A stretch of 64,000 nt of DNA from Calditrichia bacterium. GTDB lineage: Bacteria; Calditrichota; Calditrichia; RBG-13-44-9; J075. Below, one piece after another: positions 4,961-53,698 of this stretch (positions are counted from its first letter, which is position 1; each line of letters opens with the position of its first letter). The position numbers and the translations under genes are program-made. Location of the stretch: the NCBI GenBank assembly GCA_050633245.1, contig JBOEGD010000005.1:1-64000 (forward strand), read 5' to 3'. The notes under the pieces were generated by a model that saw only the letters and a program-made list of their open reading frames with translations, searched no databases and had not been told where the DNA came from.

Positions 4961-4962
4961 AG

Positions 4963-6120
4963 TTAGAGCGCCTTTCCGCGAATAATATCTACGGCCTCAT
5001 CCAATCCGACGCGCGTGAGTGACAGCATTGGAATAGAGGAGCTGATTGAATCGGCAGAGCTGTTTTTCCAGCGTTCTTCCGGTGTCGGATTGATCCAGGC
5101 GATATGGGGTGAATAGCGACGCAGCGTTTCAAGGAATTCATTGGTGCGCCGGACGCGTGCTTTGCTGTTGGATCGGCGCGCCGCACCTCCATCGCTGATA
5201 ATCATAATGCCAGAGTCATGAAATCCGCTCAATACATCCTGTAGGGGAAGACCCGTACTGCGCTTTGCATCTGTGAATAGAGACTTTCGGGGTACGTCAT
5301 GAAAATAGTAGACCGCATAGCGCGATAGTCCACCTTGACGAACCGAGTTTAGCAATCGCTGAATAATGCGTCGAAATGGAACCATCGAGCCGCCTTCATC
5401 TACCAGTAGCAGCAATTCCGCCTGGTTGGTGCGACGAGATCGCATCACCGGATGCAGAAGAAGTCCATTTTCTGCGACCTGCTGCACGGTTCCGGGAATA
5501 TCGAGAATTGTTGCCGGGCCATCCTGGCGCATTCGCCGATAATAGCGCCAGGCGCGTTTCATGTGTCGCTGACGAATCGGATAGCTTCCGACAAGATCGA
5601 GATTGGCATTAATCTGTAGCGGCCTGATTTTTGGAATGCGGACGGCGGTCCCACCTTCCGGCATTTCCGGTAGAAAGCCTAATGGAATAGCGGTTGGTTT
5701 TGGTGATGTAGAATCGGTGTCTGGAGATAAAGCAGGTTCGTCATTTCTCGGGTTATAACCCGAGGCTACATCCTCTGTATCTTTTGTGTTGTTTGTATCT
5801 AGCTTCTCGCTATTCGTCTCTTGCTTGTTTGATTCCTCAGATTCGTCTGTCGTTTCCCGATCCTGTGTTACCAATTCCCGCTTCTCGGCAAGAATGCCCA
5901 GCAGCATCCGACCGAGTTCTTCCTGCTCTTCGCGGGATTTTCCCCAAAGGACCTGAAGCGTAAATACCATGTCTGATTCGGACTCACAGCCAAAGCCATA
6001 GGAAAATGCCTGCAAAGCCAGCTTGAACTCAGCGATGCCCAGTGAGAAGTTGTGCTGTCGTAAGCTATAGAATAGCGTGAGAAGCACGTTAAATAGTGTA
6101 GGTTGAGTAACCGCCTGCAT
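4963..6120 (-). CDS. vWA (CoxE-like) domain protein of a MoxR system
   Basis: MIDAS-like LLLLVDEGGSM, IISDGGAAR, W.NP.P..RW, LD..GTV motif; abuts the MoxR gene. Confidence 0.85.
   Translation of the reverse strand: MQAVTQPTLFNVLLTLFYSLRQHNFSLGIAEFKLALQAFSYGFGCESESDMVFTLQVLWGKSREEQEELGRMLLGILAEKRELVTQDRETTDESEESNKQETNSEKLDTNNTKDTEDVASGYNPRNDEPALSPDTDSTSPKPTAIPLGFLPEMPEGGTAVRIPKIRPLQINANLDLVGSYPIRQRHMKRAWRYYRRMRQDGPATILDIPGTVQQVAENGLLLHPVMRSRRTNQAELLLLVDEGGSMVPFRRIIQRLLNSVRQGGLSRYAVYYFHDVPRKSLFTDAKRSTGLPLQDVLSGFHDSGIMIISDGGAARRSNSKARVRRTNEFLETLRRYSPHIAWINPTPEERWKNSSADSISSSIPMLSLTRVGLDEAVDIIRGKAL
5747..5769 (-). repeat. Second in-frame GTAG-type REP palindrome (CTCGGGTTATAACCCGAG)
   Basis: Perfect 18-bp palindrome at 5747-5764 plus GCTAC; encodes VASGYNPR. 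Confidence 0.75.
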
Positions 6121-7017
6121 TTACTCGTCCTCTTCCTCGAGGCGTTGCAGCAGGTGTAGATCCTGCTGATATTTGAATAGCGTTTCCAGATAGGGAAGTT
6201 TACTGAGCGCATTTTTCTCCAGCGCAGATACATCGCTGCCCCAGAAGTGTAGCACCTTCACCCAGTCAATTAGCTCACTGGTGGATGGACTCTTGCGATA
6301 GCCTTCGACTTCTCGCATATCAATCAGCCGCCTAACTGCTGCATTAACCAGGGTTGTCTCGATTTTGTGCTTTTCTGCAGCAAGATTCACATTGATGATC
6401 TTCTTAAGGCGTTCTTCACTCGGAAAGGGAATTTGATAGAATAGACAGCGCCGCAAAAAGGCATCAGGTAGTTCTTTTTCATCATTGCTGGTAATAATAA
6501 TGATGGGATGCCCTATCGCCTGATAGGTGCGCATTGGATGACCATCTTCCAGCTCAACGACATCAAACGTTTTTTCTTCCAGCTCTCGCAATAAGTCGTT
6601 TGGAAAGTCTATGTCTGCCTTATCAATTTCATCAATCAGCACCACGGATTCTCCGGGATTCATAAATGCCTGACCGAGTGCCTGTAGCTTCACATAGTTA
6701 GCGAGATCTTTTGCATTCGGATCCTGAACCTGCGCGTCGTGCAGGCGCTTAATCATGTCGAGTAAATAGAGGCCGTCTCGTGCTCGAGTGGTAGACTTTA
6801 CATACCACTTGTATAATGGAACATCAAGTTCATGAGCAATGGCGTAGGCGAGCTGAGTTTTTCCACATCCCGGAGGTCCTTTTATCAGCAGCGGGCGACG
6901 CAGCATAATTGCCATATTTACGACGCGAGCAAGGTCGTCATTGGCAAGATAGGGATACGGTCCATTTTTACTGCCCTTAGGGGGCAGTCCGTCACCGCGA
7001 TAGCGATTGCGATCCAT
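6121..7017 (-). CDS. MoxR-family AAA+ ATPase
   Basis: Walker A GPPGCGKT, Walker B VLIDEIDKAD..FPNDLL, ITSN.EKELPDAFLRRC, PSTSELIDW. Confidence 0.93.
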   Translation of the reverse strand: MDRNRYRGDGLPPKGSKNGPYPYLANDDLARVVNMAIMLRRPLLIKGPPGCGKTQLAYAIAHELDVPLYKWYVKSTTRARDGLYLLDMIKRLHDAQVQDPNAKDLANYVKLQALGQAFMNPGESVVLIDEIDKADIDFPNDLLRELEEKTFDVVELEDGHPMRTYQAIGHPIIIITSNDEKELPDAFLRRCLFYQIPFPSEERLKKIINVNLAAEKHKIETTLVNAAVRRLIDMREVEGYRKSPSTSELIDWVKVLHFWGSDVSALEKNALSKLPYLETLFKYQQDLHLLQRLEEEDE

Positions 7018-7026
7018 TTTGGTCTC

Positions 7027-8349
7027 CTAAAACAGGTCGTTTAGTTTTATGAATAGCGATTGAGGTTTGCCGTTTGTTTCATTAAAGAGAGTCGTTGACT
7101 GAATTTTAGCATCAGCTGGCGAAAGGTTCATTTGCCTGCGCAGCCAGCTGCGGATTTCTTTTTCGGTGAAGGATTGCAGTTCCGGTAAGAGAATAAGGTT
7201 GTTCGTTTGAAAGTCTTCGTCAAAGTTTTCCAATGCGTCATCATCACAAATAAAATCATAATCGGTGCAGGTGATGGGACGTTCGTGTTCAACCAGGGCG
7301 AGCAGTTGATGCGCAAGTCCATCCGGAAGCGCTGCAACCAGCGGGATCCAGAATTGTTGTTGGAATGTTACCAGTCCATCCTGCAGGCGTTGGGCATCCA
7401 GAATGGTCAGAAGCATATCACTGCTTTCGAGAATTTGGCTTATGCGAGCAGACAGCTCATTGATATCTGCCGGTTCCCAGCCGTTTTCTATCTGATTACC
7501 GATAATGCGCAGCATATTGCTTAAACCTTGCTCCTGCCAGAGTACTTCCACATTAAATGTGATGCGCTTAATATCGCTGTTGCTTAGCTCTTCATATTCC
7601 ATGGTGAGGCGCTTGATTGCTTCATCCGTTCCTATTTCAGAGTTTTCGGCATGCACGACAAAGCAGACCGCGCGAGTAAGGTCGGAGGCATCTAACTCAT
7701 CAAGCCAGTCTTTGAATTGGCGGGTTTGCGTTTCGCGCCCGAGCTTTAGAATCGTCTGTCTGGCTTGTGGATTTCGTGATTGCGTCTCGGCTTCCCGGGC
7801 AATGCCACGCAGGCCGTCGTTTTGCCACTTTGTAACAATGCGTTGAATTTGTAATGCCATGTCAAGTACTGAGGGAAACGGCATTATCGTAGCTTCATTT
7901 TTCACCAACCGGTGGAAGGCCTTAACCGCTGCTGTATCTTCCGGTTTTTGAGGGTTTGGTTGGTCGGCCCGCTGCTTGAGATCCAGATCTATCTCACTGC
8001 CTCTTGCGGGCATTAATACCGCCATCGGTTTTTTGTAGTGCCGGGCCCAGTGATATTCCAGTTCAGTAATCGACTTTTGTATGGCATCGGGAACGCAGTC
8101 TTCAGCGGGGATTAGTGCGCCATCTGCACCGGGTATCCAGCCATAGCGATAGCCAAAAATACCAACGTAATGGCTGCTATGCTCTTTTAGCTGAGTATGG
8201 CAAACTTCCGGTGCGGGTTTATATTCCGTTACCCAGTTTTCCATCGTTATCGCTACGCCCTTGCCATATTCCTCAATTGCCTTATAGGCAGCAGGACGAC
8301 ATTCTTCCATATCGTAACTGGTAGCGCTGATGAATACTTTTACCGGCAT
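7027..8349 (-). CDS. DUF4062 (TIR-like) effector fused to an inactive STAND-like domain; likely start ATG 8349
   Basis: KVFISATSYDM...YVGIFGYRYGW...SITELEY..A (DUF4062); C-terminal half has a degenerate NTPase-like pattern, F.QQFW.PL and LPEL..F...EI..WL...GKP. The upstream ORF extension is made of heptamer repeats. Confidence 0.72.
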   Translation of the reverse strand: MPVKVFISATSYDMEECRPAAYKAIEEYGKGVAITMENWVTEYKPAPEVCHTQLKEHSSHYVGIFGYRYGWIPGADGALIPAEDCVPDAIQKSITELEYHWARHYKKPMAVLMPARGSEIDLDLKQRADQPNPQKPEDTAAVKAFHRLVKNEATIMPFPSVLDMALQIQRIVTKWQNDGLRGIAREAETQSRNPQARQTILKLGRETQTRQFKDWLDELDASDLTRAVCFVVHAENSEIGTDEAIKRLTMEYEELSNSDIKRITFNVEVLWQEQGLSNMLRIIGNQIENGWEPADINELSARISQILESSDMLLTILDAQRLQDGLVTFQQQFWIPLVAALPDGLAHQLLALVEHERPITCTDYDFICDDDALENFDEDFQTNNLILLPELQSFTEKEIRSWLRRQMNLSPADAKIQSTTLFNETNGKPQSLFIKLNDLF

Positions 8350-37610: not shown

Positions 37611-40577
37611 TTATTTGCCGATTAGGATGAAAGGAGACCAATAAAATGGTGATGCATACTGTTCATCTTCAATAAGCTTTTGCTTGGCTCGCCGCAGCGA
37701 ATCGGACAATTTCTTCCCTTTGGCAACACGCTCGAAAAAATTAGTCATTAATATTGCTGTAGACTGATCGGAAACCTGCCAGAGTGAGACAGTTAGGTTT
37801 TTTGCCCCCGCATATAAAAATCCGCGGGTTAAGCCAATAATTCCTTCACCACGCACGAGCTTGCCAAGGCCGGTTTCGCACGCACTTAAGACAACCAGTT
37901 CGGCATTTAGATTCAGATTATATACTTCGGAAGAATATAATACAGCATCTTCCTCTGAAGAACTGTCTGCAGCAAGAAGAAGCCCGGAAAGCTGAGGTTG
38001 TTTTTCATTCACAAATCCATGTGTCGCAAAGTGAAGATAACGATATGATGATATATCTGCCGCTTTTATTTTATCCTCATTTGCCTGTTTGTTAAGCAGT
38101 AAGGTACTGCGTTTCTTTTTACGTTTAAAGATATTAGCAACTGCCGATGTTTCTTCTCTTGTCGCAGGTAGTGGTATTACCTTGCCATCACCGCGAAATA
38201 CTGCTGATGAATCCAGTGAGCGAACAGCTGCCAGAAAGTTGTTTTTGGATTGGAGTGTATCCGATTCATCCTCAAAGCCGGGTGCGAAGGCTAAATATCC
38301 AGAGGTCTTTTCTTGTCGACGCTGTTGGGTTTCTATCATCAGTCTCGCAGAGTAGCCATAGCCAATTGTTACCTCATGAATCAGATAGTCCAACGAAGTA
38401 AATTCTGCGTTCCGTTTGGCCGGTTGTGTTAGCAGTGCTTCAAATGGTAAATAGCCAAGAATGCCATCCGGAATAATTTGAAGGTGCTTTTTCTTTTTGA
38501 GGAGCGGCTGAAGAGGTTTGAGCAAGGTGGTGTAAAGCCGATTAGCGTAGCGGGCATATAAATTAATATCGTCGCGCACTAATCCGGAACGCATGAGTTT
38601 AACCTGTTTATCCAGATCTGCCGGCTTTTTAAGCTGAAATGCTTCGACGTTTTTGCGAGTAATTACAAAGGCGTAAATTGTACTGTCGCCAAGCATATAT
38701 TCAATCAGTGCGTCTTTTTTCCCGACCAGGTGTTTTCTTACATCGGAAACTTTCACATCGTTTGTCTGATATTTTAAATTATAGTACTGCGGATATTCTT
38801 TCTCCAGCCTGGCGGTCAATTTATCCAAGTCCAGCTTCAGCTTAAAGAGGCGGTCTTTCCATCCCGGTAATCGCAGCGAATCTACTTTGGCGCCTTTTTC
38901 CTGAGACTGCAAGACCCGTTGATTGAGTGCAGCCAGTTCGAAACGAATGGTTCGTTCTTTTTCAAGTAAAGTGTCTGGAATATTGGCAAAGCGCTTTGCT
39001 TCTACATCACTCAGTGCTTCAAGAAGTGTCCCCGACTTATTCTTTTCTGCGAACAGAAAGGCCTTTTCAGTAAAAGAATCGTCATTCGTAACCTGCGCTA
39101 ATTCAAGGGCCGTTTGTAATGCGCCATCGAAGGTCGTAGCAGATTGTTTTCCCAAAAACAGTTTAGAACCTTCTGCCTTAAAACCACTTCGCAGCGATTC
39201 TACAAAACCTCCTATGCGCTCATAGGTTGCGAGTGAAAGACGAAGATCCGGTAGATTCTGTGTCTCTTTATAACGCTTTCGAAGAAGAGTGGCCTTTTGT
39301 GTCATGTTTTCCAGCACCTTTTGTTCAGAAATAGTTTCTTCTTCGCCGGGGTTTTTTGCCAAATCCATATCGTCAAAGGAATAGGACAACGCACCAAGTG
39401 CTTTTTGATACTCTACCAGGGCTTCATCGAGTTTTCCCTGATGTTCGTACATCTCCCCGTATTTTTCAAACCCTTCAGCAATAAGCTCATGAACCGATCC
39501 ATAAAGCTCATCACGCATGCTTTTTGCCAGTTCAAAGTAGTGTGTCGCACTATCATAATCTGATTGGTGATAGGCAATAGCACCTAAACTAAGTTGAGCA
39601 TAAGAGACATATGGATGGTCTTCTCCGTAGGTGTCACTGTACCGTTTAAGAGCTTCGGTAAAATAAACTTTTGCAGTATCGTATTTAGCCATATCGTAAT
39701 AGACAATGCCAAGATTATAGTGCCCTGATGATCCGCTCGCCGAATTACCATAGACATCCAATGCAATTTTGAAATGGGAAATTGCTTTTTTGAACTCGCC
39801 CATTTCGCGATAGGTATTAGCAAAATTATTGTTGATGTAACCGACGTAGGGGTGTTTGTCGCCAAAATTTATCTTAATAAGCTCAAGCGTCTTTCCGTAA
39901 TAGTCCAGGGCGCGGTTGTAGTCACCACGATTATAGCTGACAATACCCAGGTTGTTATAGCTGGCCATGATATGCGGATGGGTTTCCGGTAGTGCATTTA
40001 TTCTGATCTCTAACGCTTTCTCGAAATAGACCAGCGCATTCGTAAAGTCATCCATATCGCCATAGCTTACCCCGATATTGTTCATTACCGCCGCTACATC
40101 AACGTGATTCTCTCCATAGGCTTTGCGCCGGATTGCCAGAGCTTTGTTTAAATACTCAAAGGATGTGGCGTAATCAGCCCAGTCTTGATAGAGAGAACCG
40201 ATGTTATTATACGCTGTCCCCAGCTGAATATGATCTTCTCCCAGAAGAGGAATAGCTTCTTCTATTGATTCCAGCAATACCTGCTCGGAAGAATCCAGTT
40301 TCTGCACCATTTGCAAATTCCCGCCGACAAAAATTTTGCATTGCATATAGGGCGACCATGCTTCAGTAAGGCCTTTTTCTGCAGCCTGTTTAAAAAGATC
40401 TCGAGCTTCGAAATAGAGCATGTTAGAGCTATCCATTTTTGATGCGCTTGCTAAAGCTTTGGCCTGTTTAAATAACGACCATGCTTTTGCTGTATCAGCG
40501 GCAGCTTCGTCCGCCTGGCAAATTGTCGAAGAGAACAAAACGGCAGATAACAAGAGAAGCAATGTCGATCGAATCAT
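37611..40577 (-). CDS. Exported TPR-repeat CHAT (caspase-like) protease
   Basis: Signal peptide; NN.G..Y...G.Y..AL.Y..KAL.I...G..HP TPRs; IIPDG.L..LPFEAL, catalytic LHFATHG and LSACETG, SLW.V.D, P.YW.PF. Confidence 0.93.
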   Translation of the reverse strand: MIRSTLLLLLSAVLFSSTICQADEAAADTAKAWSLFKQAKALASASKMDSSNMLYFEARDLFKQAAEKGLTEAWSPYMQCKIFVGGNLQMVQKLDSSEQVLLESIEEAIPLLGEDHIQLGTAYNNIGSLYQDWADYATSFEYLNKALAIRRKAYGENHVDVAAVMNNIGVSYGDMDDFTNALVYFEKALEIRINALPETHPHIMASYNNLGIVSYNRGDYNRALDYYGKTLELIKINFGDKHPYVGYINNNFANTYREMGEFKKAISHFKIALDVYGNSASGSSGHYNLGIVYYDMAKYDTAKVYFTEALKRYSDTYGEDHPYVSYAQLSLGAIAYHQSDYDSATHYFELAKSMRDELYGSVHELIAEGFEKYGEMYEHQGKLDEALVEYQKALGALSYSFDDMDLAKNPGEEETISEQKVLENMTQKATLLRKRYKETQNLPDLRLSLATYERIGGFVESLRSGFKAEGSKLFLGKQSATTFDGALQTALELAQVTNDDSFTEKAFLFAEKNKSGTLLEALSDVEAKRFANIPDTLLEKERTIRFELAALNQRVLQSQEKGAKVDSLRLPGWKDRLFKLKLDLDKLTARLEKEYPQYYNLKYQTNDVKVSDVRKHLVGKKDALIEYMLGDSTIYAFVITRKNVEAFQLKKPADLDKQVKLMRSGLVRDDINLYARYANRLYTTLLKPLQPLLKKKKHLQIIPDGILGYLPFEALLTQPAKRNAEFTSLDYLIHEVTIGYGYSARLMIETQQRRQEKTSGYLAFAPGFEDESDTLQSKNNFLAAVRSLDSSAVFRGDGKVIPLPATREETSAVANIFKRKKKRSTLLLNKQANEDKIKAADISSYRYLHFATHGFVNEKQPQLSGLLLAADSSSEEDAVLYSSEVYNLNLNAELVVLSACETGLGKLVRGEGIIGLTRGFLYAGAKNLTVSLWQVSDQSTAILMTNFFERVAKGKKLSDSLRRAKQKLIEDEQYASPFYWSPFILIGK

Positions 40578-42475: not shown

Positions 42476-43608
42476 TGACATCCGGCGATCTGCGTTTGCA
42501 GCTTGGCGTATTCGCACTCTCTTTTGCAGCTTTTGTGAATGTGTATCTCCCGCAACCCGTACTTCCTGTTATGCAGGAAGATTTATACTCCAACACTGTT
42601 TATACATCTCTGATTATCTCTGTACTATTCCTCGGTATTGCCTTTGGTAATATTCCTTTTGGGATGGCTATCGATCGCTTACCGATTCGTCCGATTGTTT
42701 TAGCCGGTGGGTCTGTTGTTGCTGTTACCGGGGCAATTTGCTGGCAATCGTCGGATTTACGAGTGATCATCGCAGCGCGTTTTTTACAGGGATTTTTTCT
42801 TCCGGCCATTACCAGTTGCCTGGCCGCATATCTTTCCCGAACGTTACCGCGTGAGCGTCTTAATCAGGTCCTGGGTGGATATGTTGCCGCGACCGTTGCC
42901 GGCGGCCTTGTTGGCCGCATGATTTCCGGACTTTTGCTACCGGCCGAAGAATGGCGAACGGCCTTCCTGATAGGGGTGACCATAACGATTATTGCACTAG
43001 CTATCTCGTATCACTCTTTTGATAACAAGCCTCTGTCTTCGTTGGAAGTAGCAGTTGTGAGCTTTAGCGAGCTATTGCGTCAAAAGGATGTAAGACTAAT
43101 TTTAATTTCGGCGGGTTTTGGAATGGCGGCGTTTGCTTCTGTGTTTAACTTCCTGCCATATCGTTTACAGTCTCCTCCGTTTACTTTGCCGGTGCGAACA
43201 TCGACGCTGTTCTATTTGCCTTATTTGATTGGCACGGTGGCAGCCTCTTTTGCCGGCTGGATGAGTAACCGGTTTAGCAATGGCATAACCATTCTCGCTG
43301 CAACCGGTTTACTCGTCTGTTCTATGATGTTGATTATGATGCCCAGCCTGACACTTACGGTTGTTGCGTTATTGGGAATGTGTGCAGGTTTCTTTGCATT
43401 GCATTCGGCGATGCTTGCAACCCTGAACAGGAAGTTGAACTCTGGCCATGGCAGGGCAAATGCCCTCTATGTATTATTCTATTATGTTGGCGCGTGGCTG
43501 GGAATAACAGTTGCCGGATTAGTCTACGAATCTGAAGGTTGGAATAGCATGGTTGCTATTTTAACTGCACTGCTGATTGTGCCTCTGTCGTTGGGACTGA
43601 AGAGGTAG
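42472..43608 (+). CDS. MFS transporter (YnfM-like)
   Basis: F..VY.PQP.LP, ARFLQG, Y.A....GG..GR, A..LY..FYY.G; 12 TM; overlaps the ATP-grasp stop. Confidence 0.88.
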   Translation: MMTSGDLRLQLGVFALSFAAFVNVYLPQPVLPVMQEDLYSNTVYTSLIISVLFLGIAFGNIPFGMAIDRLPIRPIVLAGGSVVAVTGAICWQSSDLRVIIAARFLQGFFLPAITSCLAAYLSRTLPRERLNQVLGGYVAATVAGGLVGRMISGLLLPAEEWRTAFLIGVTITIIALAISYHSFDNKPLSSLEVAVVSFSELLRQKDVRLILISAGFGMAAFASVFNFLPYRLQSPPFTLPVRTSTLFYLPYLIGTVAASFAGWMSNRFSNGITILAATGLLVCSMMLIMMPSLTLTVVALLGMCAGFFALHSAMLATLNRKLNSGHGRANALYVLFYYVGAWLGITVAGLVYESEGWNSMVAILTALLIVPLSLGLKR

Positions 43609-44217
43609 ATGTGGCATAAACATTTATTTTACAAAGAAACTATGTCTAACTGTTTTAAAGCTTCTGTTGCGAAATTCTTCTCGGGGGCAAAATAACGTTA
43701 ATTCTATTACTACCATAAAGTCGTTATTGATACTCAAAGGCTGGTCCAGCAAATTCAAACTAAGCGCGGTATTTCAAAACCATCTGGAATATAAAGTCGA
43801 GAGACTGAGTGGCCGTAGCGGCTACATTATTACTCAGGAGAAGTTGTATCGGTTGTTGAGTGATATTGAGAGTGATTGGTTAAAATAAACAAAAACAGCA
43901 GGCTATTTATTTCAATATGGGAAACCTATAAATATTGTTTTAGGTAAGCGGCCACACCATAAAGATGTTGCTTGCCCCCAGTGCGATTAAAACCTCCGCT
44001 ATTGAAGCGGACAAAAGACAAATATAGTATTTTAACCTGCTATAAAAATCTGCTCTCTTCATATTGCTATCCTCCTTCTCGGGCTGTTGACCCGTGTTTA
44101 TTACATTTAGTAGGTGATTTTTTACACATGAAAAAACCACAAAGACGACAGCACCAAAGACAAGCATAAGGGATTCTACACCTTTACAGCTAGCCGCAAG
44201 CCTAAAACAGCACTATT

Positions 44218-44466
44218 TCAATTTTCCTTATCTTTCGGTGGATTTGGATCGTTTCCTGGTTTCACAGTATCCTTACTTCGGATTTTACCATCACGACCTT
44301 TCGTAATACGCTCGCCACCACCTTGACTTTGCAACATTTGGGTCGCAGCCTTTTCAGCTTCTTTCTGAGTATCGTGAACAGAAGAAGCCTTTGTAGCGCC
44401 CAGTTTTTTGTTTGCCCATGTTCCGTCAGGACGACGAAAAATGATGCGATCTCTTTCTTTACTCAT
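44218..44466 (-). CDS. DUF2188-family small protein
   Basis: DG.W..KK.G..KAS..H.TQ.EA...A.......GGE....GRDGKIR..D....GNDP.PP. Confidence 0.8.
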   Translation of the reverse strand: MSKERDRIIFRRPDGTWANKKLGATKASSVHDTQKEAEKAATQMLQSQGGGERITKGRDGKIRSKDTVKPGNDPNPPKDKEN

Positions 44467-44610
44467 TTTTAATTCCCCTAAAGTCTGTTAAGTGGTTCGA
44501 AATTGATACAGCAAAAAACATTCCAAAACAGTACACACGTATATACGTCATTCGCCAGCGCGCCATAACTGTCTATAACAGCCCTTTTGTATATTTTTGA
44601 CACACAATCG

Positions 44611-45993
44611 TTAAGCAGCTCTGCTTAGTCCGGCCAATCCCAGCAACGGAACAACATCCCCCCGGCCGACGTATCGCAACAGTGCTTCGCACGGCTCATC
44701 GTACGGGTCCAGAAATTCTTCATTCTGTGCGAGATTGAAACGCTGTTGGGCGTAATTCGAGTTTGGCTCATCTCGGAACGGGTGTAAGCGGGCTAAAATT
44801 TCGTTAAGCAATTTAGATGCAAAATATGCATTAGCGCTGACAACCGCCAGCTGCTCTTCCTTCACGCCTATAATATAACCGGCCCGGCGCTGCTCTTCAT
44901 ATCCTGCTGGGTCAGACTGCTTTAGTGATTCCGCTCGAACCCCTTCCATGGATACGGCTCCCCGGCTAAGCACGCTTGAACCGCCCGGCTGCAAGTAGTG
45001 AATTGCTCCCCAAACACTCTCAACACCGCCTTTACCGTCCGGATCGATACGAACACCGACATCGAAATAAGGGATTGAATAGTAAGTTGCCAGGCGATTG
45101 AGCGTGTGGCGACCACTATGGGAATCGACACAACCGACCACGATATCGCATTCCGACAACGCTTCTATCGTCCCCGCCTCACCCAGTAAATGCGGAAAAG
45201 TTTTTACATCGGTGCCGAAACCGATTCGGTCAACAGCGTCGGCAGCGACATCGACTTTTAAGCGATTGTCCTGTGCATCCTGAAGAGTCGAATTGATAAT
45301 TCGGTTCAGGTTTCTTTCTTCAACCCGATCCGGATCGACCAGAACCAATCCTCCAACACCCTGGCGTGCTAGCAGCTCTACAACGAAGCTACCGGTTCCA
45401 GAACAGCCGACTACTCCTATCGTCAACTCGGATAGAAGATCACGGGTGCCGCGCGCAAACAGTTGTCCTGTTGTGGGTTTGAAATTAGACGAGACCCGCC
45501 AAATATTGATATCGTCTCCGGCAACGGATATTGAAGCCAGTGGCGTAAAATTACCCGAGACATCTACAACCCGGCCGATCAGACGACCATCAGGCAACAG
45601 AATAACGCTGGCATGGGGATCATCCGTATCCAGCCAACTATATACCGAACCGAAAAAGCTCCGATCCGCTTTGTCGTCGAGAATTGAAAAATCTTCCCAG
45701 CCTCCCGGGTGGCTATGCAGCTTCAAAATTCCACCACCACAGGCCTCTGCTTCTTCCAGCAAGGGAATAAGTAAATCGGTCGGCCATATCAGCAAGTCGT
45801 TTTCCCTGGCCCGGCAGGTATCGTACGGAACGAGCACCAGTTTTCGAATCATAATGCAGGTCTTATTCTTACCGGTTAACCGGCCACATAACGCTATTGC
45901 TGCCGCCTCTTTGCCGTCTTCCGGAAGCAGGTGCTTCATTAAAGCCTCATGCTGCTTACCGCTCATTCGCAAATGTAAGTTGTTCGTTCTCAT
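44611..45993 (-). CDS. Fused JAB/MPN+ deubiquitinase-like peptidase and ThiF/E1-like adenylating enzyme (BubCD-like)
   Basis: N-terminal DGKEAAA...LCG and JAB motif HSHPGG...FS..DD..D; C-terminal VGCSGTGS, D.D.VE..NLNR, GCVDS..GR..LN, D.GV; RBS GGAG before ATG 45993. Confidence 0.85.
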   Translation of the reverse strand: MRTNNLHLRMSGKQHEALMKHLLPEDGKEAAAIALCGRLTGKNKTCIMIRKLVLVPYDTCRARENDLLIWPTDLLIPLLEEAEACGGGILKLHSHPGGWEDFSILDDKADRSFFGSVYSWLDTDDPHASVILLPDGRLIGRVVDVSGNFTPLASISVAGDDINIWRVSSNFKPTTGQLFARGTRDLLSELTIGVVGCSGTGSFVVELLARQGVGGLVLVDPDRVEERNLNRIINSTLQDAQDNRLKVDVAADAVDRIGFGTDVKTFPHLLGEAGTIEALSECDIVVGCVDSHSGRHTLNRLATYYSIPYFDVGVRIDPDGKGGVESVWGAIHYLQPGGSSVLSRGAVSMEGVRAESLKQSDPAGYEEQRRAGYIIGVKEEQLAVVSANAYFASKLLNEILARLHPFRDEPNSNYAQQRFNLAQNEEFLDPYDEPCEALLRYVGRGDVVPLLGLAGLSRAA

Positions 45994-46004
45994 TATTAAG
46001 GCTC

Positions 46005-46697
46005 CTATTTGTTCAATTCCCTTTGAAACCAATCGCTAATCGCCAGCAGGTGCGTTGAAATGTTGTCGATTCCCGGACGCCATGGATTTTGGGGAGTGCG
46101 ATGTCTGGACCAGCGCTGCCAGTTTTTGCCATCAAGGTTATGACCGGCAAGCGCATCAATCGGTTTGCCGTCTTTACGAGCAAGTCCGGGATTAAAATAC
46201 GCCATATCGATCTGGACACCGGGATAACCGGCTTCGATTTTCAAAGCAACATCGACATTGTCGACATTATATCCGGAGCAAACTGGGTAATCACGAATGA
46301 TTACCCAGTTACCGTTATCACGGATGGTCTCCCAGTTTACACCGAGGTTGTCCAGATCAACTATATCTTCTTCGCTCAACTCAAATGTCTTGCGAAGCGT
46401 CTCACCGTCTTTGATTTCCAAAGGAAGGGTGATAAACCGCTCGACTCCCGGTTTGGTAAAATCCACCTTCTCATCGTAACCGACTTCGATCTTCTCACCC
46501 CGAACCCGCTGATACAGACGATAACAATCCGCCGGTTTCTTACCGGCGAGTTCCAGGATTTCGCGACCGGTCATACACTCTACCCGTACGACATACTTCT
46601 CGCGATCGACGCGGATGCGATAACGGCACCCGTGAGGCGGTACTTTTTCTGTTTTTGCATAGCTCTCGATATCGATAATGCGATCTTGCATAGCCAT
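46005..46697 (-). CDS. Fused multi-ubiquitin-family Ubl and prokaryotic E2 family E (BubA-BubB-like)
   Basis: Ubl YRIRVD.......MTGREILELAGK......LYQ...VDF..PGVERF.T.P....DG followed by E2 L...D...L..LG..WET...W.II..YP...GY....V.VAL.I..GYP..QIDM.YF.P.L.R.DG..I....WQRWSRH...NPWRPG.D...TH; AAGGAG RBS before ATG 46697. Confidence 0.85.
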   Translation of the reverse strand: MAMQDRIIDIESYAKTEKVPPHGCRYRIRVDREKYVVRVECMTGREILELAGKKPADCYRLYQRVRGEKIEVGYDEKVDFTKPGVERFITLPLEIKDGETLRKTFELSEEDIVDLDNLGVNWETIRDNGNWVIIRDYPVCSGYNVDNVDVALKIEAGYPGVQIDMAYFNPGLARKDGKPIDALAGHNLDGKNWQRWSRHRTPQNPWRPGIDNISTHLLAISDWFQRELNK

Positions 46698-46864
46698 CTC
46701 CTTTCGTTTATTTTGGCTTTCGCTTATCAATACGATAAATCGTGACATCAAGAAGCATATATGGAATCAATCGGTCAAACCTGTCACGCTTGATCGTATT
46801 AGATATTGAGGGGACTATTAAAACGGGTTTTGACCTTACTTAATTCATAGGATGTTATACTAAA

Positions 46865-47551
46865 ATGAACAAACAATTTTCGCAAGAAAGCGATGATGAT
46901 CTACTTATCTATATGTGTTTACAAAAGGATGCCCGTGTGGTTGCCGAAGAAGCGCTTGTAGAGTTTTATCACCGTCACAAGGATTATGTATTTAATATTT
47001 TAAAAAATAAGCTGGGAAGCTTCGTGAAGTCAGGTATCATTGAAGAAATTCATAATGATATTTTTCTGAAAGTTTTTTTAAAAGCGGATACATATAAACC
47101 AAGCTCCAATTCCAATGTTAGATCATGGCTTGGAAGGATAGCACAAAACTCTGCGTTTGATTGGGGGGCGAAGCATAAGCGAGAATCAAACGAGATAGCA
47201 TTGGAGATTGAAGAATGGAATGGTATTGAATTAGGTAAAAAGAATAATGCTGTTCGAGTCGACCACAGAAAAGGTGCTTTAACAAATGCCTTATTGAAAT
47301 TATCCGACCGCGATAGAGAGATTCTTTTAATATCTATGGATCACTACGATCCAGAAAAGCAGAATATTGATATACCACCTGCTATACTGGAAGAATTGTG
47401 TAAACGTCACAAAACTACTCGCGAGAATATCCGGCAAATTCGCAATAGAGCAAAAAAGAAAGTCGAAAAATACTTGAAGGAACATACTCCCCATTTGCAG
47501 ACAGAATCACCTAACTCAGAACCTGGCCCTCGAGTTGTTTCCAAAGACTGA
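46865..47551 (+). CDS. ECF-type sigma-70 factor
   Basis: Region 2 (A..EFY.RH...V...EEI.NDIFLKV....Y....RSWL.RIA.N...D) and region 4 (L.KLSDRDREIL...EL......ENIRQ...RA.KK). Confidence 0.78.
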   Translation: MNKQFSQESDDDLLIYMCLQKDARVVAEEALVEFYHRHKDYVFNILKNKLGSFVKSGIIEEIHNDIFLKVFLKADTYKPSSNSNVRSWLGRIAQNSAFDWGAKHKRESNEIALEIEEWNGIELGKKNNAVRVDHRKGALTNALLKLSDRDREILLISMDHYDPEKQNIDIPPAILEELCKRHKTTRENIRQIRNRAKKKVEKYLKEHTPHLQTESPNSEPGPRVVSKD

Positions 47552-47671
47552 ATATTAGAAAAACAGCTTCAATGAAAAGTCTATCTCGTTAGTATAAAAA
47601 ACTGACGAGAATTAGTTATGCACCGTGTATTTCATAACTTCAATTATGATTACCAGGCAGGAGAAGATTCC

Positions 47672-48034
47672 ATGAGATATTCCAAAAAAGGTCCTATAGT
47701 AAAATCACCCATTTCCGAGAAAAAACTTTATGAGTTGTTTCAAAATGAAAATCTGGTTTTTCCAAAAAACAAAGAAGAAGTCGCCAAGGCAGAGAGGCGA
47801 ATGGAGGAGAAAAAGTACACTTTGCCTACAGATTTACAAGAACCGACTAAACTACTTCGGCTATTAAGGAACAACACTAGGCAAGATAAATGTTTGAAAT
47901 CAGAAACAACTCCGAACCCTGAGGTTGAAGAAAATATGGCAAGAGCTGCGAGAGAAGGCGGAAATATTTCGCCTGAGATAGAAGCTATAATGCAAAGAGA
48001 TAGAGCTAAAGCTGAAAGTAAATCAACAAAATGA
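47672..48034 (+). CDS. Hypothetical small protein between sigma and ImmA (ORF could start at 47618)
   Basis: GGAGA RBS before ATG 47672; FP...EEV...E and MARAAREGG; ATGA overlap with the next gene. Confidence 0.65.
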   Translation: MRYSKKGPIVKSPISEKKLYELFQNENLVFPKNKEEVAKAERRMEEKKYTLPTDLQEPTKLLRLLRNNTRQDKCLKSETTPNPEVEENMARAAREGGNISPEIEAIMQRDRAKAESKSTK

Positions 48035-48879
48035 AACGAACTATTTCTAAGGCGAAAGAACAAGATATCTGTGATTTAGCGGAGGCTGTAGCCGAAGAAT
48101 ATACTACCGAGAGTTCCGATAAGGCAAACCTTGAGTTAATTGCTGAACAAAACGATATAACATATAGTTATGGACATTACGGCGAATCTTTTGATGGAAT
48201 GCTCGAGCATAAAAGCTCCCGCTTTCATATTTATTGTAACCTTGATAGACTCAAAAAATCGAATTCACCGAGATCGCGATTTACTTTTGCACATGAATTA
48301 GGACATTATTATATAGACGATCACAGAAATGCATTGGAAAGTGGAAAGGTTCCGGCCCACCCATCGATTTGTGAGTATCAATCAAAGAATATAGTAGAGC
48401 AAGAAGCAGACTTATTCGCGTCTAATTTACTTATGCCCGCTTCAAGGTTCAGCTCTTTGGTCGATTCGACACCTATTGGAGCAGAAAGTATATTTAAAGC
48501 GGCAAATCAGTTCAAAGTTTCTCTTTCAAGTGCAGCTGTCAGATATTGCAAAAGTGATATCGTTCCCTGTACTATTATTAAGTGGAGTCAAAGAGGCTAT
48601 GACTGGAAATTAATTTCTCTATCTACTTATAAAGCGACCCTAAGGAAAACAATAGAAAAAATTGGGGACATTCCCAGAGACTCTCCAACGTTTCGGATAT
48701 TAAATGAGGAGAGGCCTAAGGAAGGTTTTTTCGAAGCGGGCACGACAGTCGCACACTGGTTTCCGTATATTGATCATTCCTCGCAAAAAAAATCAATATT
48801 AATCGAGCAAGCTATCTCGCTTGGTTCCTATGGCGCTATTACCATTCTCTTCCCGGAATCCGGTCAGTATTCGAGTTAG
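48031..48879 (+). CDS. ImmA/IrrE-family zinc metallopeptidase (CapP-like)
   Basis: FDG.L, R.RFTFAHELGHY, E.EAD.FAS.LLMP, F.VS..SA..R; C-terminal GAF-like extension. Confidence 0.9.
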   Translation: MKRTISKAKEQDICDLAEAVAEEYTTESSDKANLELIAEQNDITYSYGHYGESFDGMLEHKSSRFHIYCNLDRLKKSNSPRSRFTFAHELGHYYIDDHRNALESGKVPAHPSICEYQSKNIVEQEADLFASNLLMPASRFSSLVDSTPIGAESIFKAANQFKVSLSSAAVRYCKSDIVPCTIIKWSQRGYDWKLISLSTYKATLRKTIEKIGDIPRDSPTFRILNEERPKEGFFEAGTTVAHWFPYIDHSSQKKSILIEQAISLGSYGAITILFPESGQYSS

Positions 48880-49122
48880 CCTATACACAAAGCGGTCAAC
48901 TGGATCTGCTGATCGGCGTGTATGTACTGGAGATGGACCGTCAGACTCCACAGCACGATTTGCCATGATGATGTGTATAGGCGGGGGAAATAGAAACATC
49001 AAAAACTTTGCCGCAACAAAAAGTAGATGAGAATAAAGCTAAGAAATAGTATTATATAGGTTTCTTGTATAATTTATTGCTGAAAATGTCATTGTTAGAA
49101 TTGAAACTCTTGAGAGAATTTT

Positions 49123-50121
49123 ATGCCTAAAAAAAAGATGGTTAAAAATATTCAAGAATCTTTTAAGACCAACAAATTCCTAACCCAAGTAGTAACCAGT
49201 ACTATAGCATCTGCGATCGTCTCTGTTGGAACCATGTTTTTTTTCATCCTTCCCAATCAACTTGCAGATATAGAGAAGAAGTTAGACAGCCTAATTTTGG
49301 TACAAAGTGACTCGACAACTGATTTTCAAATAGGTTCAAGAGGCAATCGCAAAGTTGACATAAAAGAGAGCGGTGATCTTAAAGGGGTAAATATCGTACA
49401 GGGTGACAATAACGCGATAGGTTCATCCCCGCAAGAATTAAAAGAGGCTATTGTTAATGATGAATTTAAGGGAATGTTGTATGAAGCAATTCAAGGACAA
49501 CCCATACCGAAAGATTTTAACATCACAAACAAGTACATAACTGTAAAAAAGTTTGAATTTATTCCTGATGCTGACAACGAGACGCCTGAAACTTCGGGAT
49601 ATAATAATTATCTAAAATCAATGCAAGCTCAAGTTAAGACAAAGCAGCAAATAACAGAAGAAGTTCTAGCCGAAGTAGATTCGGGAAACCTTAAGGGATT
49701 TGAATACACACAAAAAGAGATAGATGACAAGATTTCTTATCGCTTAAATCAAAGCAAACAAACATACGACAGACTCAAACTCGCTCAACGAAGTTTGGCG
49801 GGCAATATGATGCGTAATAGTAGTTCAGATATGAATTTGGATGAAGTTCCGGGAAAAATAGATTACGCAATAGAAAACCTTACAAACGAGCCCTATATGA
49901 TCATATACATAACTTATTCATGTTTAAACAAACAAGGGATAAGAATAGGTAAAGGCAGTATATCACTCGAAAACATACCTCCAAAGGCGACTGTCAAAGG
50001 TATTATACCTTTAGAAGATGTAAAACTTTCAAAAGCTGATCTGACAGACAAAGTGCAGATCGATGGAATTTATGACGCGCAGACAATCATGCAATATGCA
50101 AGAAGGTTAAACATTAGATAG
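49123..50121 (+). CDS. Hypothetical membrane-anchored protein with coiled coil and C-terminal FxLYD-like beta-sandwich
   Basis: One N-terminal TM; C-terminal I.N.T......I.ITY..LNK.G..IG......NI.P. Confidence 0.55.
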   Translation: MPKKKMVKNIQESFKTNKFLTQVVTSTIASAIVSVGTMFFFILPNQLADIEKKLDSLILVQSDSTTDFQIGSRGNRKVDIKESGDLKGVNIVQGDNNAIGSSPQELKEAIVNDEFKGMLYEAIQGQPIPKDFNITNKYITVKKFEFIPDADNETPETSGYNNYLKSMQAQVKTKQQITEEVLAEVDSGNLKGFEYTQKEIDDKISYRLNQSKQTYDRLKLAQRSLAGNMMRNSSSDMNLDEVPGKIDYAIENLTNEPYMIIYITYSCLNKQGIRIGKGSISLENIPPKATVKGIIPLEDVKLSKADLTDKVQIDGIYDAQTIMQYARRLNIR

Positions 50122-52819: not shown

Positions 52820-53698
52820 TTACTTCAACAATACCAACTTTCTGGTCTGCACAAAGCCATCCGTCTCAAGCTGGTAGAAATAAATTCCACCGGAAAGATC
52901 CTGCGGCTGCCACTCGGCCTTATAGCTTCCGGGAGTCAGCTCTTCATTTACCAGCGTTTCAACTTCCTGCCCAAGTGGATTAAAAATCGTCAGCTTTACG
53001 TTGCTGGTTTTGGTGGTTGAAAATTCAATGGTCGTCGATGGATTGAACGGATTTGGATAGTTCTGCATCAGCTTGAAGGATTCGGCTACTCCGGCATCTT
53101 CAAGTGGTTCTACTCCTGTGGCGAACGCAAACTCCAGGTCATCAACCTGAATCGTAGCAAATGTTGTTTGTTCTGGAGATGCGGATGCGGTAATCCCCAT
53201 AATTATACTGGCAAAAGCGGCATCTCCGCTTCCAAAGTAAACAATAGGTACATTAAATGGCAAATAGCTTTGAGTGAGTTGGCTGAAACTCCCGCTTCCG
53301 GTTGCGATCGGTGTCCTTCCAGCATCACTGATGATAATACTAACGGCTAACGCAACGCCAAAAGAACCCTCCAGGCTGTCCAATTTGTAAAACCCGTTGA
53401 GTGAGCTGTAGTTTTGGGTGATCGGAAAAAAATTGTCGATTTCGTTCCCGGTCCCAATTATTGGAGGGATGGGATCATCTGGCCCGGAAATGAGTTCTCC
53501 AAGAATAGCGGATGAACCACTATTTGCGTCTCCTGTTTCCGTGACATTTGTAAGGATACCCGGAAGGTTGCTGGTAAACCATCCGTTAGGTTCTCCACCC
53601 GTCCAATTTTCGAATCCGGGGTTGGGGATTTCGTTTTGCGCTGATAATAGTGTTGTGAATGCCACAATACATAGCATACTGTAAAGAAAAATTTTCAT
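52820..53698 (-). CDS. Secreted carbohydrate-binding-like protein with C-terminal sorting domain
   Basis: Signal peptide; IPN.GFENW....P.GW...VDDL; QNYPNPFNPST...RKLVLLK. Confidence 0.75.
   Translation of the reverse strand: MKIFLYSMLCIVAFTTLLSAQNEIPNPGFENWTGGEPNGWFTSNLPGILTNVTETGDANSGSSAILGELISGPDDPIPPIIGTGNEIDNFFPITQNYSSLNGFYKLDSLEGSFGVALAVSIIISDAGRTPIATGSGSFSQLTQSYLPFNVPIVYFGSGDAAFASIIMGITASASPEQTTFATIQVDDLEFAFATGVEPLEDAGVAESFKLMQNYPNPFNPSTTIEFSTTKTSNVKLTIFNPLGQEVETLVNEELTPGSYKAEWQPQDLSGGIYFYQLETDGFVQTRKLVLLK

Follow-up and report, generated by a model that had tools for sequence, protein, structure and literature searches.

Positions 46,865 to 48,879 of a 64,000-nucleotide (nt) stretch of Calditrichia bacterium DNA (GenBank assembly GCA_050633245.1, contig JBOEGD010000005.1, positions 1 to 64,000; the whole stretch is referred to here as the window) carry three consecutive genes encoding a sigma factor resembling the extracytoplasmic function (ECF) type, a small all-helical protein and a CapP-type metallopeptidase. 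This triad lies head-to-head with an operon resembling the bacterial ubiquitination-like (Bub) systems. We propose, with a probability of roughly 0.55, that the triad is a protease-gated sigma/anti-sigma switch exerting positive control over both the Bub-like operon and itself. The families of the genes, a gene order conserved in related loci, a predicted binding of the small protein to the sigma factor and an oriented DNA motif shared by the two divergent operons carry this proposal; cleavage of the small protein by the peptidase and triggering by DNA damage are proposed by analogy with characterised relatives of the peptidase, together with the conserved adjacency and the overlap of the two genes. 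The elements of the locus, with positions counted from the first letter of the window, are as follows (aa, amino acids; Ubl, ubiquitin-like; PWM, position weight matrix).

46865-47551, + strand: ECF-like (group 4) sigma-70 family factor, 228 aa (Pfam Sigma70_r2, TIGR02937)
47672-48034, + strand: small all-helical protein, 120 aa, predicted anti-sigma (family profile search, AlphaFold2, complex prediction)
48031-48879, + strand: CapP-type M78 (ImmA/IrrE) metallopeptidase, 282 aa (PADLOC capP, Pfam Peptidase_M78)
46005-46697, - strand: Ubl-E2 fusion (BubAB-like), first gene of the putatively controlled operon (Pfam Multi_ubiq 2.8e-14, Prok-E2_E 1.6e-34)
44611-46032, - strand: JAB peptidase-E1 fusion (BubCD-like; Pfam ThiF 2.1e-27, Prok-JAB 1.6e-4, the latter below cut-off; PADLOC E1-E2 models)
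44218-44466, - strand: DUF2188 protein at the operon end, the usual place of DUF6527/BubE (Pfam DUF2188 1.5e-18, PADLOC PDC-S16 3e-20)
46782-46802, + strand: promoter-like oriented motif TGTCACGCTTGATCGTATTAG, 62 nt before the sigma start codon (pattern search)
46727-46747, - strand: opposite-facing motif copy TGTCACGATTTATCGTATTGA, 29 nt before the Ubl-E2 start at 46697 (inverted repeat, PWM score 16.1 bits)
47584-47610, + strand: 10-bp hairpin of doubtful significance in the gap between the sigma and small-protein genes (terminator-like scan, without a clear T tract)
47930-48013, + strand: conserved C-terminal module of the small protein, EN-M/L-ARAAREGG-x-I-x-PE...M-x-x-DR, candidate region for CapP recognition or cleavage (75-sequence alignment; cleavage proposed by analogy)

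An earlier reading of this DNA, made from its letters alone (the sequence-only reading), had described three genes head-to-head with the Ubl-E2 gene, translational coupling of the small gene to a peptidase, and the absence of any XRE or other helix-turn-helix (HTH) repressor. The open reading frames (ORFs) and their families bear out this description. The gap, 46698-46864, measures 167 nt; an ATGA overlap joins the small gene to the CapP gene (ATG at 48031, TGA at 48032-48034); HELGH is present in the peptidase and the string MARAAREGG in the small protein; and none of the 21 ORFs scanned from 37.6 to 53.7 kb matches an HTH/XRE family. The same reading had placed the Ubl-E2 start at ATG 46697, from which its gap figure stands, but the second ATG, at 46691, is more likely the true start, because a GGAG sequence abuts the first.

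The small-protein gene most likely begins at ATG 47672 (120 aa) rather than at 47618, where its longest form starts (47618-48034, 138 aa), since a GGAG sequence lies 7 nt upstream of the former, relatives measure 113-130 aa and the 120-aa form is present in a database. A 120-nt spacer (47552-47671) separates the sigma gene from the small gene in the window; most related loci have no such spacer, the genes abutting or overlapping there. The hairpin in this spacer is not statistically unusual (fold z-score -1.66), Rfam gave no match between 43.5 and 50.5 kb, and a scan for sigma-70 promoters stayed at chance level (12 found, 14.3 expected).

Conservation of the triad and predicted sigma binding

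Related loci were collected by scanning one genome per species with the peptide pattern LARAAREGG, derived from a 49-row alignment of sequences sharing ARAAREGG. Ten genome loci (L001-L010) were obtained, in metagenome-assembled genomes (MAGs) of Planctomycetota, Lentisphaerota, Victivallales and Acidobacteriota. The small gene is situated between a sigma-70 family gene and a Peptidase_M78 gene in all ten, and an in-frame CapP start overlaps its 3' end in nine of them as well as in the window. The recurrence of the same gene order in every related genome locus indicates that the arrangement is more than chance. Three plasmids with similar sites were found by tblastn of the peptidase, bringing the comparison to 14 loci including the window. 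The gene order of the triad is present on two annotated plasmids, one from Chryseobacterium (L012), where the triad is divergent from what is annotated as a Pycsar system, and one from Segatella copri (L013); on an Isosphaeraceae plasmid the peptidase is unannotated and CapP is a tblastn match only. Full-length profile comparison linked the Bacteroidota small proteins to the family of the window protein with probabilities of 89% and 50%, and the Bacteroidota sigmas to that of the window sigma with 70% and 82%.

The sigma factor matches Sigma70_r2 (1.9e-7, 31.2 bits against a cut-off of 24) and the TIGR02937 sigma70-ECF model (53.7 bits, cut-off 42.9). A group 4 sigma factor consists of regions 2 and 4 only, in about 200 aa. 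The window protein agrees with this, having no match to region 3 or 1.1; a long linker joins its regions 2 and 4, the latter of which also contains an insertion. It can be aligned with the sigmas of the 10 related loci, region 4 scoring above the Pfam cut-off in half of these relatives (5/10). Word-indexed protein searches with the sigma or with the small protein returned the window's own protein only; relatives of the small protein required an exhaustive search of cluster representatives, which gave 188 at E<=1e-3, nearly all of 113-130 aa.

An alignment of 75 of these small proteins revealed two conserved parts. The N-terminal one contains GW..P.T.EEV..AE followed by LP..L.DP, and the C-terminal one ENLARAAREGG.I.PE.E..MR.DR..AE. 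Five columns are invariant, A93, R94 and R111 among them, and the invariant Ala93-Arg94 pair is encoded at 47948-47953 in the window. The C-terminal module, which includes the MARAAREGG region that the sequence-only reading had named as a candidate cleavage site, is the most conserved part of the family. The AlphaFold2 model of the window protein has six confident helices (mean predicted local distance difference test, pLDDT, 84.6) and a predicted template modelling score (pTM) of only 0.39; confident helices with so low a pTM suggest that the protein has no compact fold of its own, as would be expected of a protein that wraps around a partner.

The small protein had no match in Pfam, NCBIfam or PADLOC, its profile met nothing below E=0.025 among Protein Data Bank (PDB) sequences (the best hit, a short LacI-family stretch, was judged not meaningful), Foldseek of the model against PDB gave 0 matches, and the ESM Atlas offered no usable one. 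It thus shows none of the marks of a class I anti-sigma domain, namely a domain or zinc-motif match in Pfam or NCBIfam, a PDB sequence match at E<0.01 or a fold match, and may work like such a domain without being a member of the class. Longer, fused forms were not found in a search, which is weak evidence. In one 215-aa sequence (P0150), the first ~90 residues of the sigma family run straight into a complete small protein. This is probably the outcome of a deletion between adjacent genes or of assembly, and is an independent sign that sigma and small gene are neighbours in another genome. A repetitive 613-aa sequence (P0018) was dropped from the family as a false positive.

The complex of the two proteins was predicted from a sigma alignment of 11 rows and a small-protein alignment of 75 rows. 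The score was 0.82 in three runs, compared with 0.13 for the best of three controls; in calibration, 116 of 157 solved complexes but only 2 of 215 mismatched pairs attained the score mark. Contacts agreed by at least 84% between runs, and the pLDDT of the partner was at least 64. On the side of the small protein the interface comprises N-terminal residues 13-69, including the conserved P31, V37, E41 and P52; on the side of the sigma it comprises residues 24-97 and 137-204, that is, regions 2 and 4, with the region 2 helix 56-72. Contact of a cognate partner with both of these regions is thus found at the level of prediction. The interface list contains no small-protein residue beyond 69, and hence none of the C-terminal module, although unlisted residues are to be read as uncertain rather than as proven free. 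This prediction supports, short of proving, binding of the small protein to the sigma, as the sequence-only reading had supposed in calling it a soluble anti-sigma; it does not give the sign of the binding.

The peptidase matches Peptidase_M78 (8.4e-12) and the PADLOC capP model (2.9e-47), the latter match running from residue 10 to 273 (profile positions 2-238 of 242) and taking in the C-terminal (GAF) part. It was aligned to an Escherichia coli plasmid CapP whose residues match the numbering used in a Corbett-lab preprint (PMC13228613). The HELGH motif and the glutamate of EQEAD align with H97, E98, H101 and E128 of the E. coli protein and are invariant in 11/11 and 13/13 aligned sequences. 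Equivalents of three of the five residues contacting single-stranded DNA (ssDNA) are kept in the window (R90, W196 and Y264), those of K195 and W280 being lost. In 11 of 13 triad peptidases, that of the window included, a longer switch loop contains a Cys with Glu or Asp after it, three positions off E. coli C114; the two Bacteroidota peptidases have no such Cys, and the cysteine switch loop is not universal among CapP proteins. According to the same preprint, six hydrophobic surface residues of CapP receive the C-terminal helix of CapH; in a tentative mapping through a segment of ~25% identity, these positions are Y, gap, M, E, H and Y in the window peptidase. With the catalytic positions kept and the CapH-docking hydrophobic surface replaced, the protein fits the same ssDNA-gated chemistry acting on a different substrate.

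A directional motif in front of both operons

The 167-nt gap between the divergent operons contains a 19-nt inverted repeat (89% complementary), each arm of which is one copy of an oriented motif of about 20 nt, TGTCACG-N6-7-CGTAT, reading toward a start codon. Two exact matches to the pattern lie in the 64-kb window, where 0.06 would be expected. The motif also precedes the sigma gene in all ten genome loci, L001-L010, with variant forms in L002 and L010. A weight matrix was trained on 9 sigma-upstream sites and used to scan 235 kb, with 200 dinucleotide shuffles as control. At 16 bits or more it gave 20 matches, 11 of them outside the training set (shuffles: mean 0.6, maximum 4), and at 20 bits or more 15 matches, 6 of them outside the training set (shuffles: mean 0.05).

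Seven of the 11 non-training matches lie upstream of another ORF and point toward it: those of the Bub-like operon in the window, the divergent Multi_ubiq/ThiF operon of L004, the CD-NTase of L007 and the ABC transporters of L001 and L008, and two sites in L003. An eighth is the sigma-upstream site of L010, and the remaining three are unplaced or inside genes (L006 8040, L010 10442 and L010 6331). Divergent motif pairs are found exactly where the neighbouring operon is divergent (window, L002, L004 and L013). The pair on the Segatella plasmid has the form TGTCACGATTTT(A/G)GTA, and the Chryseobacterium plasmid carries a weaker variant of the motif.

From these data we infer that the motif is a promoter read by the sigma of the triad. 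A promoter is favoured over a palindromic operator because the motif is directional, is duplicated where a second operon begins and travels with the triad across phyla with different housekeeping promoters. Many copies contain a short dyad, ACG-N6-7-CGT, which is absent from the Bacteroidota copies, and a palindromic operator was rejected on account of this absence and of the directionality. A sigma-54-like interpretation (TGGCACG) was also rejected, as the GG is absent. The sequence-only reading had held that the sigma transcribes the Ubl operon; the twin opposite-facing copies, one per operon, and the same motif in related loci agree with that claim, in which the sigma would be the reader of the motif.

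That reading had also suggested surveying the defence genes next to the triad. Recognisable ones were found in 5 of the 14 loci:

Window: Bub-like operon
L004: Multi_ubiq+ThiF operon
L002: E2-E1-JAB-patatin fusion
L007: SMODS, E1, JAB and SAVED (Type II cyclic oligonucleotide-based antiphage signalling system, CBASS)
L012: Pycsar

An ABC_tran/ABC2_membrane_6 transporter lies near the triad in four further loci (L001, L006, L008 and L010), and the rest of the 14 have no neighbour operon that can be named. In loci of Phycisphaerae type the triad is linked to this transporter (L001:11450-11470, L008:10419-10439 and L006:2615-3634); in two loci the motif stands 43 nt ahead of the transporter, and in one the transporter comes directly after the peptidase gene. 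The transporter-linked loci imply that the switch is not restricted to known defence cargo and, judged from these gene neighbourhoods, the triad is a portable regulator that is not tied to ubiquitin-like systems.

Divergent from the triad, L002 encodes (2414-7098, - strand) a 1,153-aa protein in which E2, E1, JAB and patatin phospholipase domains are fused; a 408-aa protein that matches metallo-beta-lactamase weakly comes before it. The arrangement is reminiscent of a 6A/Cap2-Cap3 system that has its effector built in. In L003, a Lentisphaerae MAG, the gene immediately before the triad is a single ORF of ~1,640 aa (2217-7148, + strand). It combines RNA polymerase beta domains (Rpb2_3, Rpb2_6 and Rpb2_7) with beta-prime domains (Rpb1_2 to Rpb1_5), falls far short of the combined length of rpoB and rpoC, and has the triad motif at its 5' end (L003:2225-2245). 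Either a compact fused polymerase controlled by the same sigma or an artefact of ORF calling could account for it.

Proposed mechanism and competing explanations

In the switch that we propose, the 120-aa protein would clamp the sigma at rest, its helices spanning about residues 13-69 lying on regions 2 and 4 and keeping the sigma off RNA polymerase. The CapP-type peptidase would be activated by ssDNA arising from DNA damage or phage infection, as in CapH/CapP and IrrE/DdrO. It would then cut the C-terminal module of the small protein and thereby inactivate or destabilise the anti-sigma. The cut would most likely fall at Ala93-Arg94, by analogy with CapH, whose cleavage site is given in the Lau et al. 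2022 preprint as hydrophobic|Arg, at Phe82|Arg83. The freed sigma would read the two opposite-facing TGTCACG-N6-7-CGTAT(A) copies, one driving the sigma, anti-sigma and CapP genes, for feedback and reset, and the other driving the Ubl-E2, JAB-E1 and DUF2188 genes.

Several observations weigh against this proposal. All ten genome loci were retrieved through one exact peptide pattern and represent a biased, partial sample of the family, and gene starts in the MAGs derive from crude ORF calls. Region 4 of the window sigma scores below the Pfam cut-off (16.5 against 24.1). Solved ECF sigma/anti-sigma complexes exist, so the complex score may partly reflect likeness to them, and the alignments were self-built, which makes the calibration counts approximate. 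Between the two motif blocks lie 6-7 nt, compared with the 16-17 nt that usually separate the -35 and -10 elements of autoregulated ECF promoters. With respect to cleavage, a profile of canonical CapH compared by hhalign reached 0.3% against the small-protein family and 0.1% against the L012 protein, that is, no detectable homology with the CapH cleavage domain, which the C-terminal helix-turn-helix with its Arg resembles only as a pattern. Furthermore, the proposed cleavage region lies outside the predicted sigma interface; how a cut there would release the sigma can only be guessed at, through loss of dimerisation or through exposure of a degron.

The same comparisons bear on the question of whether the small protein might instead be a divergent CapH-type DNA-binding repressor occupying the paired sites, with CapP cleavage de-repressing both operons and the sigma as an accessory or cargo. 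PADLOC capH is the only model that matches the Bacteroidota small proteins (L012 5.3e-11, L013 3.2e-5), a sentence of Lau et al. 2022 speaks of 'capH and capP alongside' a sigma, and the short dyad in many motif copies would suit a repressor. We nevertheless regard a repressor as distinctly unlikely. Canonical CapH proteins, taken from four plasmid CapH/CapP pairs beside CBASS or Bub operons, match PADLOC capH together with generic HTH models (HTH_VI, RmrA, control-protein), unlike the small proteins of the window and five relatives, which match no HTH model of Pfam, NCBIfam or PADLOC. Those of the window, L004 and L007 have no capH match either, and the model of the window protein has no fold match in PDB. 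The hhalign values given above are close to nil, the motif is directional and has no dyad in its Bacteroidota copies, and the predicted sigma binding is far above its controls. The PADLOC capH model may have been derived from a mixed set with sigma-associated small proteins in it, which agrees with the sentence of Lau et al.

The sigma/anti-sigma pair may also be real and CapP may not act on the small protein, processing the sigma or another host substrate, or a different signal may release the anti-sigma. The position of the conserved C-terminal module outside the predicted interface and the want of CapH cleavage-domain homology would both accommodate this view, which we judge unlikely. The CapP gene follows the small gene in all ten genome loci and overlaps it in nine, and the module is the most conserved part of a protein in whose predicted sigma binding it has no role. 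ImmA cleaves the product of its adjacent gene, and papers on characterised CapP and IrrE report the same of these enzymes. We consider it very unlikely that the triad is a self-contained stress module merely adjacent to Bub genes that are expressed without the sigma. Such a module would suit the ABC transporter that is the nearest motif-bearing or adjacent operon in 4 of the 14 loci, the several loci without recognised defence genes and the lower G+C content of the triad (0.38-0.41, compared with 0.48 for the Bub genes), from which the two may differ in origin. It is at odds with the second motif copy, which points at the Bub start codon from 29 nt away, and with the recurrence of this arrangement ahead of the Bub-like operon in L004, the CBASS operon in L007 and the E2-E1-JAB-patatin operon in L002. 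Finally, as the complex prediction shows binding and not its sign, the small protein could be a positive co-factor or chaperone of the sigma, with CapP cleavage switching the system off after stress. We find this highly improbable, given that the predicted interface covers region 2, including helix 56-72, and region 4. Known anti-sigma domains block core binding by covering these two regions. Moreover, a protease that responded to damage by shutting defence down would act in the opposite sense to all Cap regulators characterised so far.

Relation to known regulators and surrounding genes

Host-killing defence operons need tight control, and to our knowledge the known adjacent regulators, CapW/BrxR, CapH+CapP and CapK+CapS, all lift repression. 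If the proposed switch is correct, a private sigma under the gate of a protease would bring in control that is positive and amplifies itself. The triad would represent a portable three-gene device with a defined 20-nt target, distributed from Bacteroidota plasmids to Planctomycetota and Acidobacteriota, and its compact motif would open an unusual promoter architecture to direct test. Somewhat short of even odds, we would go further and regard it as a mechanistically distinct class of Cap regulator. In this class, an ssDNA-activated M78 protease would destroy a soluble anti-sigma of a new family, and a private sigma acting on a compact promoter without standard -35/-10 geometry would switch on the operons of Bub, CBASS and Pycsar systems and some operons outside defence; the proteins labelled 'CapH' in these systems would then be anti-sigmas and not repressors. 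A likely annotation error would thereby be corrected, given that the Bacteroidota relatives of the small protein score as capH.

ECF sigma/anti-sigma pairs under regulated proteolysis are exemplified by RseA with DegS/RseP and RsiW with PrsW. The triad resembles them in its group 4 sigma, co-transcribed with a partner that is predicted to sit on regions 2 and 4, in a probably autoregulated promoter with a downstream block of the CGTAT(A) type, and in a sigma that would be freed by proteolysis. In contrast to RseA and RsiW, the predicted anti-sigma is a soluble protein that lacks both a transmembrane segment and the zinc-binding signature of anti-sigma domains, and a cytoplasmic M78/GAF protease expected to sense ssDNA takes the place of an envelope cascade; the motif blocks also differ in spacing (6-7 against 16-17 nt).

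With CapH+CapP (Lau et al. 2022; Calloji et al. 2026, preprint), IrrE/DdrO of Deinococcus and ImmA/ImmR of ICEBs1, the triad shares a peptidase family with HExxH, a third zinc ligand and what may be an equivalent of the Cys-containing switch loop. Also in common are three of the five ssDNA-contact positions, a peptidase translationally coupled to a small upstream partner gene, and a position divergent from or beside Bub, CBASS or Pycsar operons. It differs in that the partner has no HTH and no detectable CapH homology, the CapH-docking surface of CapP is not conserved, and a dedicated sigma gene, to whose product the partner is predicted to bind, precedes the pair, which would result in positive control instead of de-repression. 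CapK+CapS (EMBO J 2026, PMC13373217) is likewise a regulator pair derived from sigma control, located upstream of Bub and other immune operons and responding to ssDNA; CapS, however, is a DNA-binding repressor inactivated by phosphorylation and involves no sigma, whereas the triad contains a real sigma and would rely on proteolysis.

A sigma gene next to capP has been noticed before. One sentence of Lau et al. 2022 records a sigma-70-family gene beside 'capH and capP' in 24 CBASS systems and gives no mechanism, and beyond that sentence we found no mechanism described in the literature on M78/ImmA/IrrE/CapP with a sigma or anti-sigma. Sigma-linked CapP systems have therefore been glimpsed already without being interpreted, and any claim of novelty needs tempering; the switch proposed here, if correct, would account for those 24 unexplained sigma genes. 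The word 'sigma' occurs 0 times in the Bub regulator table of Dataset EV1 of PMC13373217.

The divergent operon encodes, in order, a Multi_ubiq+Prok-E2_E protein, a JAB+ThiF protein and a DUF2188 protein. A Ubl-E2 fusion followed by a JAB-E1 fusion is the Type I Bub (6E.1) layout as set out by Ye et al. (PMC11601596), with the reservation that the Prok-JAB match in the window is below cut-off. Ye et al. state that all Bub operons have DUF6527/BubE; the regulators that Bub operons are known to carry are CapH+CapP (168/544) or CapW. The window departs from this description in both respects: the sigma triad would be the regulator, and DUF6527 had no match in any ORF of at least 50 aa between 43.6 and 46.8 kb, the DUF2188 gene being present in its place. 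A 75-aa ORF without any match also lies at this end of the operon (43600-44600 region).

The G+C content falls to 0.41 and 0.38 over 46001-50000, which holds the triad and the next ORF; it is 0.48 in the Bub genes and 0.45-0.49 in the flanks. This contrast suggests that regulator and Bub cargo may be of different origins. The ORF that follows the triad (49123-50121, 332 aa) has no family match except a weak one to FxLYD. A Por_Secre_tail protein (52820-53698, - strand), the type IX secretion sorting domain, suggests a host of the Bacteroidota/FCB group; set against the closest relatives of the triad that were found, which come from MAGs of Planctomycetota-Verrucomicrobiota type, this host signal hints at horizontal transfer. 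Located 4 kb beyond the Bub-like operon, a gene for a 988-aa TPR-CHAT protein (37611-40577, - strand) is possibly another conflict-system gene.

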